Origin: a virus
Taxonomy: Duplodnaviria > Heunggongvirae > Uroviricota > Caudoviricetes
IMG/VR virus record: IMGVR_UViG_2695420403_000013
Span: 1 to 26,336 of that record
DNA: 26,336 nt
Strand: one strand, 5' to 3'
The stretch's first letter is position 1, and every line of letters begins with the position of its first letter. Shown one piece after another: positions 1 to 24,215 of this stretch. The translations under genes and the position numbers were made by a program. The notes below the pieces were generated by a model. That model saw nothing but the letters and a program-made list of their open reading frames with translations. It ran no database searches and had not been told where the DNA came from.

Positions 1-744
1 CAGAAGGATAAGTTCGGCGCGGGTAAGAACGGTTTTACCCGTGGTAACCCCCAGACCGGCACGCCTGCCACCGATCTGGATGATGACTACTTTGACATGT
101 TGCAGGAGGAACTTTGCAGCGTGGTGGAGGCATCCGGTGCCAGCCTGGAGAAGGGGCGGCACGACCAGTTACTTACCGCACTTCGCGCGCTGCTGTTAAG
201 CCGCAAGAATCCGTTTGGCGATATCAAATCGGATGGCACTGTGCAAACGGCTCTCGAAAACCTTGGTTTGGGAGAAGGCTCTGCATTACCTGTTGGTGTC
301 CCTGTTCCGTGGCCTTCAGCCACTCCGCCAACAGGCTGGCTGAAATGCAACGGAGCAGCTTTTTCTGCTGAAGAATACCCGGAACTGGCAAAGGCTTACC
401 CGACAAATAAATTGCCAGATTTACGTGGTGAGTTTATTCGTGGCTGGGATGACGGGCGTGGTATTGATGCTGGACGTGCTTTATTGAGCCTTCAGGCTGG
501 GATGCTGGAAAAACACCGCCATATTGTTGTTGCCAATGATGGTTACGACACAAAAGATGAATGGGAACTGGCTACGATTTTCAAAAAAACATACACACAA
601 GGACGGGGACTTGATGCCACAAATACAGGAGGGAGTCTGATCCCATCACCGACACTTCATTCACGAGGGAGTATCGGTAATACTGGCGGGAGTGAGACCC
701 GTCCACGAAATATTGCATTTAACTTTATCGTAAGGGCTGCATAA
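1..744 (+). CDS. Tail fibre C-terminal region with phage tail-collar-type receptor-binding domain; 5' end outside window
   Basis: Frame 1 is open from nt 1 to the TAA at 742-744. Collar-domain-like motifs [29 protein letters not shown] and [16 protein letters not shown]. Stop overlaps the next ATG (TAATG). Confidence 0.6.
251..276. repeat. Candidate DNA-invertase crossover site (hix/gix-like 26-mer), left copy
   Basis: ctctcgaaaaccTTggtttgggagaa. Core AAAACC-TT-GGTTT resembles the Hin/Gin site consensus as I recall it. 22/26 identical to the reverse complement of 2117..2142. Central TT lies at codon positions 2-3 of the Leu in the encoded ENLGLGE. Confidence 0.5.
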
Positions 745-1352
745 TGGATAACGCAGTATTAAATAGCGAGTTTATTGCCACGAAGGCGGGGAATATTACC
801 GTCTATAACTACGATGGTGAAACTCGGGAATATATTTCTGCATCAACTGAATATCTTGCAGTGGGTGTCGGTATTCCAGCATATTCCTGTTTAGACGCTC
901 CTGGTACATATAAGGCTGGTTATACAATTTGCCGTTCTGTAGATTTAAATTCATGGGAATATGTGCCAGACCATCGCGGTGAAATCGTCTATAACACCGA
1001 AACGGGAGATGCCAAAGAAATCACAGCACCGGGTGATCACCCCGAAAATACAACCACTATCGCCCCATTAACGCCATACGATAAATGGGATGGTGAGAAA
1101 TGGGTGACCGATACTGAGGCACAGCATAGCGCCGCAGTAGACGCGGCAGAAGCACAGCGTCAGTCACTGATTGATACTGCAATGGCTTCCATTAGTCTGA
1201 TTCAGCTGAAATTACAGGCCGGACGGAATCTGACGCAGTCAGAAACCAGCCGACTTAACACGGTGTTGGATTACATTGACGCGGTGACGGCAACAGATAC
1301 CAGCACCGCGCCGGATGTTATCTGGCCTGAACTGCCGGAGACTGCGCAATAA
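744..1352 (+). CDS. Tail fibre assembly protein (Tfa-like chaperone)
   Basis: 202 aa, directly follows the tail-fibre C-terminus with overlapping stop/start. C-terminal ...TSTAPDVIWPELPE is typical of Tfa proteins. Confidence 0.75.
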   Translation: MDNAVLNSEFIATKAGNITVYNYDGETREYISASTEYLAVGVGIPAYSCLDAPGTYKAGYTICRSVDLNSWEYVPDHRGEIVYNTETGDAKEITAPGDHPENTTTIAPLTPYDKWDGEKWVTDTEAQHSAAVDAAEAQRQSLIDTAMASISLIQLKLQAGRNLTQSETSRLNTVLDYIDAVTATDTSTAPDVIWPELPETAQ

Positions 1353-1521
1353 ACTCACCATCAATATATAAATCCCCCTGCTGTGTGTCAGCAGGGCATT
1401 CTTTCCATATTAATGATGGATGGAATCTTCCTTCAGGATTAATTTCCGTTATCTCTTCTACTTTATTTTCTTCAATTCTTGCCCACATATGAACCTCACC
1501 AGTAAATATAAACTGCGCCAT
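1318..1521 (-). CDS. Small ORF (67 aa) downstream of H; possible remnant or small accessory protein, function unknown
   Basis: ATG at 1519-1521 preceded by GGAG, overlaps the 3' end of H. The region is AT-rich and the ORF runs through the 1376-1396 hairpin, so the 3' part may not be coding. Confidence 0.25.
   Translation of the reverse strand: MAQFIFTGEVHMWARIEENKVEEITEINPEGRFHPSLIWKECPADTQQGDLYIDGEFIAQSPAVQAR
1376..1396. terminator. Stem-loop between the convergent tail-fibre modules, possible bidirectional terminator
   Basis: CCCTGCTG-tgtgt-CAGCAGGG, perfect 8-bp stem, 24 nt after the tfa stop, followed by cattctttcc. Confidence 0.4.
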
Positions 1522-3178
1522 CTGCTCCGGCACCCGACTGACCCGTTGATGAATTAGGACATAATCCAGCTCCGCCACCTCCAGGCCCAACTGCTGATAC
1601 CGCTTTTCCGTTAGCTGTATCTCTGAATGAACCTGCTCCTCCGGGGCCACCACCAGAACCACCATTACCAGCTCCCGATGCGGCAGAAGCAATGGAACCT
1701 GGAGAACCTGGCCCAAGCGATATATTAATTGTTCCCCCGACACCAACTGCGCCTAACCCTCCGGAAGGCTGGCCTCCGCTATAGCCTCCGGAAGCTGACA
1801 TGTAAGTCCCGAAACTGCTCGAGCCACCATTTTTACCGTTTACAGAAATACCAGACACAGGCGCACCACCGGTACCAACCGTAATCGAAACACTGTTTAT
1901 ACCAGTTAAATCTACCAGCCCCTCAGCAACTCCGCCCCCACCACCTCCTCCGCCACATGTAACGGCTGAAGCGGTTGTTGAACCTATCCCTCCTGACGCA
2001 CCGCCACCAATAACTTTGACGTAACATTTTCTTCCTTTGCGCAACTCTTCAGGAACAGTCCAGCTTGTTACTCCAGCCGTTGTGAAGGCAACCAGATTTC
2101 TGAACCCAAATGAACCTTCTCTCAAACCAAGGTATGCGAGAAGACCAGCTACATCCTTTCCACTCAAATTAGTCAGCGTATTGTCCAGCGGTTGTTTACC
2201 TGCTAGCGCATTAAGCATTGTCGTGGCAAAGTTCGGGTCATTCCCCAGCGCCGCCGCCAGTTCGTTCAGTGTATCCAGTGCCGCAGGTGCAGAACCCACC
2301 ATTGCTGCAATCGCTGATTTCACAAAAGCTGTAGTGGCAATCTGTGTATTGTTGACCGACTGTGCCGCAGTAGGTGCTGTTGGCGTTCCGGTGAGTGCCG
2401 GACTCGACAGCGGTGCTTTTAGTGCCAGCGCATTGTTAATGGTGGTACTGAATTTCGGGTCATTGTTAATGGCTTCGGCAATTTCTTTCAGTGTGTCCAG
2501 CGTGGCTGGCGCACCGTTAATCAGAGCAGTAATAGCGGCCTGAACAAACTCAGTGGTCGCAATCCGCGTGGTGTTATTTCCTGCTGCAGGCGTCGGCGCT
2601 TTTGGTTCTCCGGTAAATGTCGGATTATGTTTCTGCGCATACTGGGTATGAGGATCTTGTGCGGCAATGTGGTTTCTCATCTGGTCATCCACATACAGCT
2701 TTAATTCCAGGACTTCATCATCCACGTATTTACGGGTTGCCAGCACTACAGCAGGGTCGATTTTCAGGGTGATATTGTCCGTACTGCTGGTAATCAGCAC
2801 CATGCGCACGGTCTGGGTGCGCCCGCTGCCTTCAGCCAGTTGCGGCTTATAGCTTTCCGGGCAGTTGCCCACGGCAATCAATGCCCCGGACTCATCAAAC
2901 AGGCCCACTTCACGTATCCACCAACCGCCCTCGTTTTCAGGGATCACCTGTTCAGCAATAATCTGGCTGCTGTTCTGCGGGTCGATGTACAGCATATTCA
3001 GCGCAGCCCGGCGTTTCTCATTTACTAATGCTGTCTGCTTTGCGTCCGGCGTTGGCAATGTTCCGCCGCCATCGCCTACCGCCATATGGGTAATTTTTAG
3101 CGGCACACCGAGCGCGGCGGCGCTGGCAAGTTTCGCCGCGCCAATATCCGTCAGCAGGGTATAAAATTTTGTGCTCAT
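1496..3178 (-). CDS. H: Tail fibre protein, P2 gpH-like N-terminal/shaft region with a glycine-rich C-terminal domain
   Basis: 560 aa. N-terminus MSTKFYTLLTDIGAAKLASAA...MAVGDGGG...GGWWIREVGLFD resembles P2 gpH as recalled. Internal repeats (ALINGAPATLDTL / AAMVGSAPAALDTL). C-terminal ~170 aa is very Gly/Ser-rich. ATG overlaps the upstream gene's stop. Confidence 0.85.
   Translation of the reverse strand: MSTKFYTLLTDIGAAKLASAAALGVPLKITHMAVGDGGGTLPTPDAKQTALVNEKRRAALNMLYIDPQNSSQIIAEQVIPENEGGWWIREVGLFDESGALIAVGNCPESYKPQLAEGSGRTQTVRMVLITSSTDNITLKIDPAVVLATRKYVDDEVLELKLYVDDQMRNHIAAQDPHTQYAQKHNPTFTGEPKAPTPAAGNNTTRIATTEFVQAAITALINGAPATLDTLKEIAEAINNDPKFSTTINNALALKAPLSSPALTGTPTAPTAAQSVNNTQIATTAFVKSAIAAMVGSAPAALDTLNELAAALGNDPNFATTMLNALAGKQPLDNTLTNLSGKDVAGLLAYLGLREGSFGFRNLVAFTTAGVTSWTVPEELRKGRKCYVKVIGGGASGGIGSTTASAVTCGGGGGGGGVAEGLVDLTGINSVSITVGTGGAPVSGISVNGKNGGSSSFGTYMSASGGYSGGQPSGGLGAVGVGGTINISLGPGSPGSIASAASGAGNGGSGGGPGGAGSFRDTANGKAVSAVGPGGGGAGLCPNSSTGQSGAGADGAVYIYW
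2117..2142. repeat. Candidate DNA-invertase crossover site, right copy, inside H
   Basis: ttctctcaaaccAAggtatgcgagaa. Its reverse complement ttctcgcataccTTggtttgagagaa matches 251..276 at 22/26. Centre lies at codon positions 2-3 of Leu350 of H (LLAYLGLRE). Confidence 0.5.
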
Positions 3179-5705: not shown

Positions 5706-6512
5706 ATGAGTGTTATGAATCCAATAAGTTCTAATATATTTAATGCTGAATTTTTAAACACCCCGGCAGCGGCACTTGCCGCATGGATTTCCATTATTGG
5801 AGCTGTTATAACTTTGGTGACGATAGTTATAAGAGCACTATTCAAATATAGAAAATCTCATGATGTAATTTTGAAAAAATCAGGAATACCTGCGTTTATA
5901 TTAAATTTTTTTCTTATACGAATATCATTAAAAAGGCTGCCTACTATCACATGGGCTGAAAAATCAATCACGGTTCTCTTTTCACTTCTTTTTTTGTGTG
6001 CAATTTATATTTTTGGTCCAGTTTTCATCCAAGCCATTAGAACCCCACCAAATAGCACATTGCTTTATTGGATAAAGTCCGGTGAATCATTTTATATGTC
6101 AAAAAAACTGGCGACTGCAGCTACAATATTAACCACTCCTGATTGGGAAATATCAAAGGATGATTGCGAAGAGTCATCCTCTGCCAGTACAGAGAAGTAC
6201 AAATCATTAACTATCGAACATAAAGAAATTCTTTGTAAACTACTAACCACTGATGAAGGGAATGCTTACATTGATGAAGAAGTCAAGAATTTCGTTAAAG
6301 ACAAATTCTTTATCTATTCCTTTGCCCCAACAACCATATTTATTCTATTATGGATTTCTTTGGGTTTTATACTGACCATTCACTATTCTAAAAAAGTTAG
6401 GAAATATATTCTGACTGAACAAAAAAATGCAATTCATTGGGCATATGGTGAATTCAAGACAGAAGGAATCTATTCAATATATCAAGAGTTAGAACGTAAG
6501 ACTCACCATTAA
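5706..6512 (+). CDS. Cargo gene: multi-pass inner-membrane protein of unknown function
   Basis: 268 aa, AT-rich, opposite strand to the flanking late operons. AGGTGG ribosome-binding site before the ATG. About 4 hydrophobic helices plus a ~90-aa acidic soluble loop. Confidence 0.6.
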   Translation: MSVMNPISSNIFNAEFLNTPAAALAAWISIIGAVITLVTIVIRALFKYRKSHDVILKKSGIPAFILNFFLIRISLKRLPTITWAEKSITVLFSLLFLCAIYIFGPVFIQAIRTPPNSTLLYWIKSGESFYMSKKLATAATILTTPDWEISKDDCEESSSASTEKYKSLTIEHKEILCKLLTTDEGNAYIDEEVKNFVKDKFFIYSFAPTTIFILLWISLGFILTIHYSKKVRKYILTEQKNAIHWAYGEFKTEGIYSIYQELERKTHH

Positions 6513-14860: not shown

Positions 14861-16543
14861 TTACAAATACCGTCTAACACGTATTTTATTAATCTTCGAC
14901 TCATTTCCAATTCTTATCAAAGCATTTCTCGCTTTTTCTCCGATGCGTTTCATTCTATCTGAACCATTGCTATACCCACCAAACTTAAGAGCAGTGGCTA
15001 TTATTGAATCACCACCTTCAAGAATGACTTTTTTAAATAAATCATAGTAGTCATCCTCTGAGGCAGCATCCAATATTTCCTCGTGCCTATCAGACCAACC
15101 ATTCTGACTTGATAATTTTATTAGAACATCCTTTATAGAACCATCCAGATTTAAAGTAATAGAATAATCTTGGATTTTTGACTTTAACTCAGCATCTTTT
15201 ATAGGATGAACATTCATGTAAATAGATTGGACATATTCCTTAAGAGCATCATTGCCGTAATTAATAAATTTACTTATTAATTCACTTGCTTTAATATTTT
15301 CATCTAAATCTCTATACAGTCCGACAACACTATCCAAGTCACTTGGAGTTACATACTCTATCCCACCAACCACCGCTTGATATAGATTATCAACGACCTG
15401 ATTTCGGTTATCTTCAAATGAATTATAGAAAAGCTTCCATGCTTCAAACAGTGAACCTCGCTTACTATCACGGATAAGTTCATCATTTCTTAGACTTACT
15501 TGCCTTTGAAAATTGTTCATATCAATATATCCATGCTTAACCATGTCTATAAGGACTTCATCAAGTTCGTTTGTTTTTTTATAACCATATATAAGCAAAG
15601 TATTAAGCCATTTTTTTCCTTTTCCATCCTCTTTTTCATCACGCACATAGATATTTCTCATATTTCTAATATACTCCAATGATGGTACATCTCCATCTGG
15701 AGTAAATGCGTAATGACTCCAACAATACAAAGTTAAGGAGCGTGCGACTTCATTTGCAATTTTATCAAAATTAATGTTAATAGCAGGTAACAAGGCTAGC
15801 AAAAACCGCTCTATTTTTTTCAGTATCCGAATATTTTTAATACCTAGAGAAATGGAGTATTTGCTTAATAATTTATGAACATCAGAATTATTTTTATATG
15901 CTATAGCTGCACATTCTTCTGGCGTAGGGTTATAGGTAATCTCTCTATCAATAACCTTTTCTTTATAAGTGGAGTAATCATCCATACCACTTGTCCCATT
16001 ATTAAGTAAAAGAACCACCTTACAATTTTTTTGTTCTTTCAATAAAGAAACCAACCCTAAGACATCTTTCACTTCTAAATTTTTACCACGTCTTTCTAAG
16101 TCATCTATGACTACAATAACATTAGTAATTGACATAAATGACATTGACTCAAGTGTCGTAGCGAAATTTTTCACAACAGGTGTTTCTTTTAACAAACGAG
16201 CGGTCTTTCTAGTGCAGGATTCAAGAAGTCCCTTTGTATTTTGGGTTGCTGTTTTTAAATTAGGTTTATTTCCAATAAAATCTTTTGTAATTGTATTTTC
16301 AAAGATGGAATATTTTAATGCGTCCAATGAATTAACACCAAAAAGAGAGACGTAACTATATCTATTAAATGCAATCTTATTCTTATTTTCCTTTAAGAAA
16401 GTATTCCAAGTATAGGTTTTCCCAATCCCCCATTCACCCTGAATAGCCATTACCTCAGGTTCTGCAGATGAAATAAAGTCTGACAACTGTTCTTTAATAT
16501 AGTCCAATGACATGCACATTCTCCGAGATAGATAGTCATCCAT
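14861..16543 (-). CDS. Cargo gene: KAP-family P-loop NTPase (PifA-like), candidate anti-phage/exclusion protein
   Basis: Walker A QGEWGIGKT (Trp-containing G-x-W-G-x-G-K-T typical of KAP NTPases) and Walker B VVIDDLERR. AT-rich. Probable true start is ATG 16511-16513 (GGAG ribosome-binding site), downstream of a TATAAT at 16544-16549. Confidence 0.6.
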   Translation of the reverse strand: MDDYLSRRMCMSLDYIKEQLSDFISSAEPEVMAIQGEWGIGKTYTWNTFLKENKNKIAFNRYSYVSLFGVNSLDALKYSIFENTITKDFIGNKPNLKTATQNTKGLLESCTRKTARLLKETPVVKNFATTLESMSFMSITNVIVVIDDLERRGKNLEVKDVLGLVSLLKEQKNCKVVLLLNNGTSGMDDYSTYKEKVIDREITYNPTPEECAAIAYKNNSDVHKLLSKYSISLGIKNIRILKKIERFLLALLPAININFDKIANEVARSLTLYCWSHYAFTPDGDVPSLEYIRNMRNIYVRDEKEDGKGKKWLNTLLIYGYKKTNELDEVLIDMVKHGYIDMNNFQRQVSLRNDELIRDSKRGSLFEAWKLFYNSFEDNRNQVVDNLYQAVVGGIEYVTPSDLDSVVGLYRDLDENIKASELISKFINYGNDALKEYVQSIYMNVHPIKDAELKSKIQDYSITLNLDGSIKDVLIKLSSQNGWSDRHEEILDAASEDDYYDLFKKVILEGGDSIIATALKFGGYSNGSDRMKRIGEKARNALIRIGNESKINKIRVRRYL

Positions 16544-23270: not shown

Positions 23271-24215
23271 ATGTCAACTCAAAAATTCACATTTCGCCAT
23301 ATGAATGACGATATGAAAGCCGTTGTCATACAGAATCGCGGTGGTCAGAAAGTAATTGAGCGGATACTCATGGCTTATGGCTTCAAGTCACGCCAGGCAT
23401 TCTGTAACCATCTAGGTATTTCCCAAAGCACGATGGCTAACAGATATGCCCGCGATACATTTCCTGCAGATTGGGTAGTTATCTGCTCAATGGAAACAGG
23501 AGCATCAATTAAATGGCTAGCATTTGGTTCAGATGATGACGAGCAAATGCCATCCCCTTCACCAGAACAACATGTTGAAACACACTCCGAAGATGGTTCT
23601 TATCATGATGTTCACTATAAACAACAAAAGTTCGACAATGAAAACTCCGTTGATTTTTCTCGAGGTGGCAAGGAAGCAATAGAACGAATTGTTAAGGCTT
23701 ACGGTTATAAGACGCGCCAAGCCTTAGCTGATCACTTAGGTATTTCAAAAAGCACATTAGCCACAAGATATATGCGTGATGTCTTTCCTTCAGACTGGAT
23801 AATTAAGTGCGCTCTAGAAACGGGTACTTCACTAACGTGGCTAACTACTGGTAAAGGCCCAAAGTTTGACGATGCAAGAAATGATGTAATTGCTATTACA
23901 CGCAAAAAAATCACTGATGGGAATCTATTTGAGTCAGATTTCTATATGCTTGATAAAGCATTAATACCAGACTCAATCCAATTACCACTGATTGTCAGTA
24001 CCCCAAAAAAAACATACCTATGTGATCAGTCATTTGATGAAATTACAGATGGTAAATGGATTGTTGAAATAGAAGGAAAAGTGAGCATTCGAACCCTAAC
24101 TAGGATACCTGTAGGAAGATTAAAAATCTCAGACAATTATTTATCGTTTGAATGTAATATTTCAGACATTGATGTTATTGCTAAATGCAAATTTTTGCTT
24201 ATAGAAGAATTATAA
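23271..24215 (+). CDS. cI: CI-type immunity repressor with a tandemly duplicated N-terminal HTH domain
   Basis: 314 aa. Two ~70-aa repeats (IERILMAYGFKSRQAFCNHLGISQSTMANRY...METGASIKWL and IERIVKAYGYKTRQALADHLGISKSTLATRY...LETGTSLTWL), each resembling the 186 CI N-domain, plus a CI-like C-terminal domain. Confidence 0.7.
   Translation: MSTQKFTFRHMNDDMKAVVIQNRGGQKVIERILMAYGFKSRQAFCNHLGISQSTMANRYARDTFPADWVVICSMETGASIKWLAFGSDDDEQMPSPSPEQHVETHSEDGSYHDVHYKQQKFDNENSVDFSRGGKEAIERIVKAYGYKTRQALADHLGISKSTLATRYMRDVFPSDWIIKCALETGTSLTWLTTGKGPKFDDARNDVIAITRKKITDGNLFESDFYMLDKALIPDSIQLPLIVSTPKKTYLCDQSFDEITDGKWIVEIEGKVSIRTLTRIPVGRLKISDNYLSFECNISDIDVIAKCKFLLIEEL

Follow-up and report, generated by a model that had tools for sequence, protein, structure and literature searches.

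A tail-fibre cassette segment joining SfV/e14-type and P2-like constant regions, a probable product of invertase-mediated inversion between two prophages

At the left end of the window, by which we mean the whole stretch of 26,336 nucleotides analysed here, an open reading frame runs into the left crossover site of an invertible tail-fibre segment. The question raised by this locus is what that frame encodes, and how a segment that already serves the fibre gene of a P2-like prophage came to have an open frame at its other end as well. Translation of frame +1 reveals no stop from base 1 to the stop codon at 742-744 (248 codons, a 247-residue peptide), and 92 of these codons precede an ...LGLGEGS junction, in agreement with the first-pass annotation, which had described the frame as open from the left site to the window edge. 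The same annotation had noticed that this junction mirrors the ...LLAYLGLREGS peptide of the H protein, encoded by a 560-aa gene on the minus strand (1496-3178). Both peptides are indeed present, and the two junctions lie on a 30-nt inverted repeat that is 87% complementary (252-281 / 2112-2141). The region comprises the following features, the domain assignments being predictions.

1-262, plus strand: constant N-terminal region of an SfV/e14 StfP-type short tail-fibre gene, codons 10-97, as assigned by homology; its 5' end is cut by the contig and window edge
251-276, no strand assigned: left crossover site CTCTCGAAAACC-TT-GGTTTGGGAGAA, core TT at 263-264, outer half of StfP type
265-744, plus strand: variable C-terminal cassette with a phage tail-collar domain (Collar PF07484, E=1.9e-15), in frame with the StfP-type constant region
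744-1352, plus strand: tail-fibre assembly chaperone gene tfa, serving the collar cassette (Pfam Caudo_TAP, E=8e-32)
1376-1396, no strand assigned: bidirectional terminator-like hairpin between the convergent cassette units, with an 8-bp stem containing 6 GC pairs, readable on both strands and recognised by consensus match only
1496-2128, minus strand: variable glycine-rich C-terminal cassette (Pfam Gly_rich_2 PF21722), fused to the P2 H constant region
2020-2045, no strand assigned: quasi-crossover site inside the glycine-rich cassette, …CATTTTC-TT-CCTTTGCGCAAC, the endpoint of a mini-inversion in strain 2018-11-3CC
2117-2142, no strand assigned: right crossover site TTCTCGCATACC-TT-GGTTTGAGAGAA (read on the minus strand), core AA at 2129-2130 on the plus strand, outer half of P2 H type
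2131-3178, minus strand: P2-type tail-fibre H constant region (Phage_tail_fib PF12571, E=4e-65; full gene 1496-3178, 560 aa)

The coding status of the left frame follows from homology, while its length carries little weight. The earlier argument that 87 open codons would be improbable by chance is a weak one, as a 92-codon stop-free run has a probability of ~0.013-0.022 per given frame at the base composition of the window, and frames +2 and -2 also contain stop-free runs of more than 60 codons. Window positions 1-2130 align with the chromosome of E. coli S1-IND-01-A with a single mismatch (at 1722), at the locus of an annotated 256-aa tail-fibre gene to which window 1-262 is identical, and the ATG of this gene lies 27 nt (9 codons) upstream of window base 1. 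In homologous loci the fibre ATG is preceded by a GGAG Shine-Dalgarno sequence and stands 3 nt past the stop codon of ymfQ; a start codon followed by a fibre N-terminus, which the first-pass annotation had proposed to look for upstream, thus exists in these loci. The adjacency to ymfQ is likewise a property seen in the homologous loci, the source contig ending 25 nt after the expected start codon. The encoded protein shares 95-97% amino acid identity with the fibre N-termini of phages SfI, SfII, SfIV, and SfV, PGAP names the equivalent gene stfP, which is the e14 gene name, and native P2-like loci are devoid of this region. Judging from these alignments, bases 1-262 are the genuine constant N-terminus of an SfV/e14 (StfP)-type tail-fibre gene and no cassette remnant, which bears out the second constant region suggested earlier. 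The opposite reading, under which the frame is open by chance or is what remains of a dead cassette preceding the silent one, can appeal to the ~1-2% chance per frame of 92 stop-free codons, not negligible over many windows, but is left with practically no probability by the nucleotide identity to annotated full-length fibre genes, the start codon just upstream of the edge, and the close resemblance to fibres of isolated phages.

The crossover sites have the expected structure. The 26.3-kb window contains two copies of the motif TTGGTTTGRGAGAAGG and no more, as compared with 0.02 occurrences expected by chance, and the ~26-bp sites form an inverted pair with identical 2-bp cores (TT/AA), as in the Din family of serine invertase systems. 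With just two canonical sites in the window, the multi-cassette array that had been considered as an alternative is not borne out. The inner part of the left site, TTGGTTTGGGAGAAGG, equals the inverted repeat of the e14 P segment (PMC12529663). At the other end, the core dinucleotide of the right site is the precise point where the window ceases to be identical to the SfV/e14-like locus, and from position 2131 it is P2-like. The H constant region is 99.9% identical to that of the P2-like prophage of strain 2018-11-3CC, and the H gene conforms to the P2 type in possessing the Phage_tail_fib N-terminal domain and in following the gene order V-W-J-I-H in the source contig.

A small rearrangement distinguishes the reference strain 2018-11-3CC, in which the 95 bp equivalent to window 2034-2128 are inverted (L002, 7774-7874), with endpoints at the right-site core and at the TT of the weak quasi-site listed above. 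The mini-inverted H is still 560 aa long and has a different 32-residue linker (PLRNSSGTVQLVTPAVVKATRFLNPNEPSLKP), and all other loci examined keep the orientation of the window. This 95-bp mini-inversion looks like invertase action at a secondary site.

In the present orientation, the fibre genes at the two ends of the segment are both complete. Flipping positions 263-2130 in silico leaves both frames open. The StfP constant region then continues into the glycine-rich cassette, a fusion with 298 codons inside the window and 307 aa once the 9 codons beyond the edge are counted, and the H constant region continues into the collar cassette, a fusion of 509 aa with tfa behind it. Other genomes encode each of the four fusions beside an identical 202-aa tfa: those of 256 and 307 aa occur in SfV/e14-like loci, those of 560 and 509 aa in P2-like ones. 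The cassettes are therefore in frame with a constant region in both orientations, as in Din-family systems, whereas the usual arrangement of one constant region and one silent promoter-less cassette gives way here to constant regions at both ends. The glycine-rich cassette has no recognisable chaperone. A 67-aa ORF (1318-1521, minus strand) overlaps the 3' ends of the glycine-rich cassette and of the opposite-strand tfa; it is called in many genomes as 67 or 115 aa, returns no Pfam match, and could be either spurious or a small chaperone for the glycine-rich cassette.

The two native contexts of the segment differ in what lies beyond the sites. In S1-IND-01-A, the prophage that carries the locus has a head of HK97 type and a Mu-like tail, and the gene order is DNA circularization protein, Gp45/46/47-like baseplate, ymfQ (Gp48-like), 256-aa fibre, tfa, silent cassette, pinE. 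In native P2-like loci the match to the window begins at base 258; beyond the left site, on the upstream side, come first a gene for a 188-aa serine recombinase and then that for the tail sheath. An invertase gene adjoins a crossover site in both contexts. In the window, no serine invertase gene (Resolvase + HTH_7) adjoins either site, and a tblastn search of the whole window with PinE and the P2-type invertase returned nothing better than E=0.9. The Fis-dependent recombinational enhancer lies within the 5' part of the invertase gene in the Gin, Cin, and Hin systems, and its usual location is therefore absent from the window as well. The invertase-proximal half-site TTTTCTTAAACG, also missing from the window, is the same in both native prophage types; since, in addition, the cores are TT and the two native invertases (PinE and P2-type) are 84.5% identical, the crossover sites of the two prophage types should be interchangeable substrates. 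Action in trans is known for the e14 P segment, which the Pin-type invertases encoded by other prophages can flip (PMC12529663).

The rest of the window is a P2-like prophage extending from H to the integrase, whose best P2-like match among 5,426 complete E. coli genomes shows 97.5% identity over 81% of the query. Its late and early P2-like regions are interrupted by two moron-like genes. A DUF6216 protein is encoded between S and V (5706-6512, plus strand), and a P-loop NTPase of the KAP family, 560 aa long and with a match to the PADLOC candidate defence family PDC-S49 (E=8e-25), at 14861-16543 on the minus strand. The CI-repressor ORF (23271-24215, plus strand) is 314 aa long, compared with about 190-198 aa in related prophages, and gives two separate CI helix-turn-helix matches, which points to a start codon further into the ORF or else to a duplicated N-terminal domain.

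Comparison with these loci presents the window as a hybrid made up of an SfV/e14-type constant region, the segment, and the P2 H constant region, devoid of an invertase. Such an arrangement might be the native design of a single phage, that is, a two-fibre-gene or multi-cassette (Min/shufflon-like) region of a P2-like prophage, and the two intact frames with their mirror-image junction peptides would fit it. Yet the window has only the two canonical sites, the invertase gene occupies this position in all native P2-like relatives, the left constant region is 100% identical to the gene following ymfQ in a different prophage family, and of 5,426 complete genomes a single one has this configuration, there demonstrably as the outcome of an inversion. 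Taken together, these points make a native design very improbable. The earlier suggestion of two convergent complete fibre genes swapping receptor-binding domains accordingly stands in so far as flipping keeps both genes open, but not as the design of one phage, the two genes deriving from two prophage families.

The genome just alluded to was found with a chimeric query combining 3.26 kb of the SfV/e14-like baseplate-to-constant region with 3.27 kb of the window covering P2 H-I-J-W-V. Both halves occur together, with a 1.8-kb segment between them, in FDAARGOS_1287 alone among the 5,426 complete E. coli genomes. The StfP constant region of this strain is in frame with a cassette, forming one continuous 199-codon frame across the crossover site. 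About 45 kb away lies the reciprocal junction, which reads P2 sheath - recombinase, orphan segment, pinE, and adjoins ssrA. When the stretch from about 85.0 to 130.3 kb is turned back, glaH and ssrA enclose two tandem prophages, both intact and colinear. FDAARGOS_1287 has thus undergone a ~45-kb inversion between crossover sites of two neighbouring prophages and, because both junctions are present, inversions between crossover sites of two prophages do happen. As to the un-inverted relative of this tandem, only looser analogues were found. Other strains carry tandem lambdoid and P2-like prophages with the same kind of junction, as well as P2-like prophages integrated at ssrA; GF47, in which a lambdoid prophage accompanies a P2-like prophage without an invertible segment, supports the tandem layout but is not a direct parent.

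Two observations were made alongside. In FDAARGOS_1287, PGAP calls the StfP region a pseudogene missing its C-terminus and adds a separate 'gp53-like' CDS (L004, 11974-12573), and automatic annotation thereby conceals hybrid fibres such as this fusion. E. coli TW10598 (L016, 8896-11841) possesses an orphan fibre-cassette segment with pinE genes on both sides, comprising two tfa genes and a truncated tail protein but no fibre constant region, and adjoining an Avs2 defence gene and a truncated integrase. This layout is repeated in at least 12 other ETEC genomes and resembles a decayed reciprocal junction of inter-element recombination.

How could the window have arisen? If we assume a native SfV/e14-type locus (ymfQ-stfP constant region, site, invertible segment, site, pinE) in the same chromosome as a native P2-like prophage with its segment between the H constant region and the P2-type invertase gene, a Din-family serine invertase of the Pin/Gin/Cin/Hin type may have synapsed one crossover site from each prophage. 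Inversion of the intervening DNA would then create a junction with two constant regions and one segment, and the reciprocal product, with two invertase genes and one orphan segment, would be expected elsewhere in the genome. In this hybrid state, StfP-constant plus collar plus tfa and H-constant plus glycine-rich would both be complete at once; a later flip by an invertase acting in trans would give each fibre the receptor-binding cassette of the other, and after a second inter-prophage event each prophage would possess the other's segment. We consider it probable (roughly 0.62) that the window is the product of such an invertase-mediated inversion between SfV/e14-type and P2-like prophages. 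Since the window has no invertase gene, and with it lacks the usual place of the enhancer, we can only infer that the segment still flips.

The size of the rearrangement would depend on where the two prophages resided. Elsewhere, the SfV/e14-like prophage sits at thrW-ykgE (S1-IND-01-A) and the P2-like integrase near dacC/deoR (other genomes). If the prophages of the source strain occupied these places, the inversion would span several hundred kb within one replichore, and would be less likely to persist than the 45-kb case. A literature search covering a limited collection found no description of invertase-mediated inter-prophage inversion.

The same junction could also stem from a site-specific deletion in which tandem prophages with sites in direct orientation lost the intervening DNA, so that a composite locus remained in which SfV-like head and tail genes lead through StfP and the segment to P2 H ... 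int, both invertases having been lost. The window taken alone, with one junction and no invertase, would agree with this, and decayed loci with odd combinations of sites and flanks do exist, such as the orphan segment between pinE genes in ETEC. However, the only resolved case, FDAARGOS_1287, is an inversion with both products present. Din-family invertases, moreover, strongly prefer inversion between inverted sites, as reflected in the topology of Gin and Hin synapsis, which counts against a deletion. We therefore regard deletion as unlikely and presume that the event was an inversion.

A more serious competitor arises from the position of the junction, as just 2 nt separate window base 1 from the end of a 107-kb draft contig (CYDW01000014.1, GCA_001283865.2) and only 259 nt of second-prophage DNA are attached beyond the site. 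An assembly artefact or a population mixture could have produced it if the source strain carried intact P2-like and SfV/e14-like prophages, and if the assembler walked from the segment into the other constant region and stopped there, which presumes that the invertible segments of both prophages are identical, at least at the collar-cassette end. Misjoins at segments that are shared or that flip typically leave just such a short overhang into the wrong branch. Between the two prophage types of other strains the segment scarcely differs, so that a shared repeat is conceivable, and it lies on contigs shorter than 2 kb in many draft assemblies (62 index blocks), marking an assembly trouble spot. 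Alignments of four loci reveal no repeat boundary at stfP +25 that would explain the contig end, and an unexplained stop is what a wrong extension may look like. The hybrid state is also rare, and the two prophages may lie far apart in the source strain. Against this, the contig is unbroken through the 1.87-kb segment and both 26-bp sites, where a two-copy repeat normally breaks a short-read contig. At 99.9% identity the segment is single-copy in all complete genomes that carry it (7 records, 6 strains), and the collapsed two-copy repeat needed for a misassembly is therefore without precedent in these strains. Finally, the same hybrid, with its reciprocal junction, is real in FDAARGOS_1287. 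An artefact remains a doubtful explanation, though one of real weight, and we infer that the draft contig reflects a real DNA molecule. A genuine site-specific inter-prophage product, whether by inversion, which is favoured, or possibly by deletion, is thus somewhat better than an even bet.

The history of the segment itself points in the same direction as the inversion between prophages. One and the same base distinguishes the 1.77-kb segment of the window from an SfV/e14-like and a P2-like copy carried by unrelated strains (counted without the 95-bp mini-inversion of the reference strain 2018-11-3CC), and homology to both breaks sharply at the crossover sites, which together indicates recent exchange at the sites. 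Segment identity was also tried as a clue to which site had recombined and was rejected: an apparent 100% versus 98.3% in favour of the SfV/e14-like copy came from the 95-bp mini-inversion, and the comparison is uninformative because both references differ from the window by that same base. The same segment, with its 100% identical 202-aa tfa, stands behind three constant regions, namely P2 H, SfV/e14 StfP, and a Mu-like fibre. In the third context (L006, 5001-6720; L007-L015), the different Mu-like fibre lies beside a 197-aa Gp48 near ompW. On these comparisons, the cassette module appears to move between phage families as a unit bounded by crossover sites.

It is tempting, though speculative, to see the hybrid locus as functional, with one segment reciprocally assigning two receptor-binding cassettes to a P2-like and an SfV/e14-like fibre; it might also be an intermediate in the transfer of cassette modules between phage families, Din-family invertases occasionally joining co-resident prophages. 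Such an intermediate would explain how three unrelated constant regions can be followed by a 1.8-kb segment that is the same in every base. From mosaic sequences it has long been deduced that unrelated phages exchange tail-fibre ends horizontally, with invertase sites suggested as exchange points, and two prophages joined at their invertase sites would provide a concrete, testable intermediate for this process. In addition, a fibre invertase can invert chromosomal DNA in such a way that two prophages are split in one step, and such an inversion, being reversible in principle, could rejoin both. This bears on prophage stability, on host-range evolution, on fibre genes annotated as pseudogenes, and on assembly breaks at such loci.

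Compared with known systems, the locus can be treated as a variant built from two members of the Din family rather than as a plain member. Its left half corresponds to the e14 P segment with Pin (E. coli K-12, stfP-tfaP-tfaE-stfE-pinE) and to the fibres of SfV, SfI, SfII, and SfIV, with which it shares the StfP constant region after ymfQ (in the homologous loci), the inner repeat of the left site, the in-frame ...LGL-x-EGS fusion, and alternating C-terminal cassettes, each with its own chaperone or none. In the e14 type, however, the far site leads to pinE, while in the window it leads to the P2 H constant region, with the invertase absent. The right half corresponds to the invertible segments of P2-like prophages (H - segment - invertase - sheath), sharing the H constant region, the site in the LGLxEGS motif, and a segment 1 nt different from that of 2018-11-3CC. 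Beyond the left site, native P2-like prophages have the invertase and then the sheath, whereas the window has the fibre constant region of another phage. Phase-variable loci of both kinds, P2-like and e14, have been described (PMC4272514), the P2-like ones for example in prophages of EPEC E2348/69.

The Mu G/Gin and P1 C/Cin systems belong to the same class, with a serine invertase, 26-bp sites, and a 2-bp core, and in them too the fibre C-termini switch together with their assembly proteins. They possess one constant region and two cassettes, the silent one without a constant part, in contrast to the window, where each cassette has a constant region and neither is silent. Homologous recombination between lambdoid prophages of E. 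coli O157 gives rise to chromosomal inversions. These resemble the proposed event in having two prophages as end points, both of which are split, but they rely on kilobases of homology, compared here with 2-bp cores of 26-bp sites flanked by unrelated DNA. Lastly, in type I restriction-modification hsdS loci, complete hsdS genes exchange target-recognition domains by inversion (PMC9881135). As in the window, the genes are complete and convergent, and the inversion, with its ends inside the coding sequence, trades their C-terminal specificity modules. The hsdS loci nevertheless involve other recombinase and gene families and represent a native design, as opposed to the apparent by-product of two mobile elements that the window would represent.
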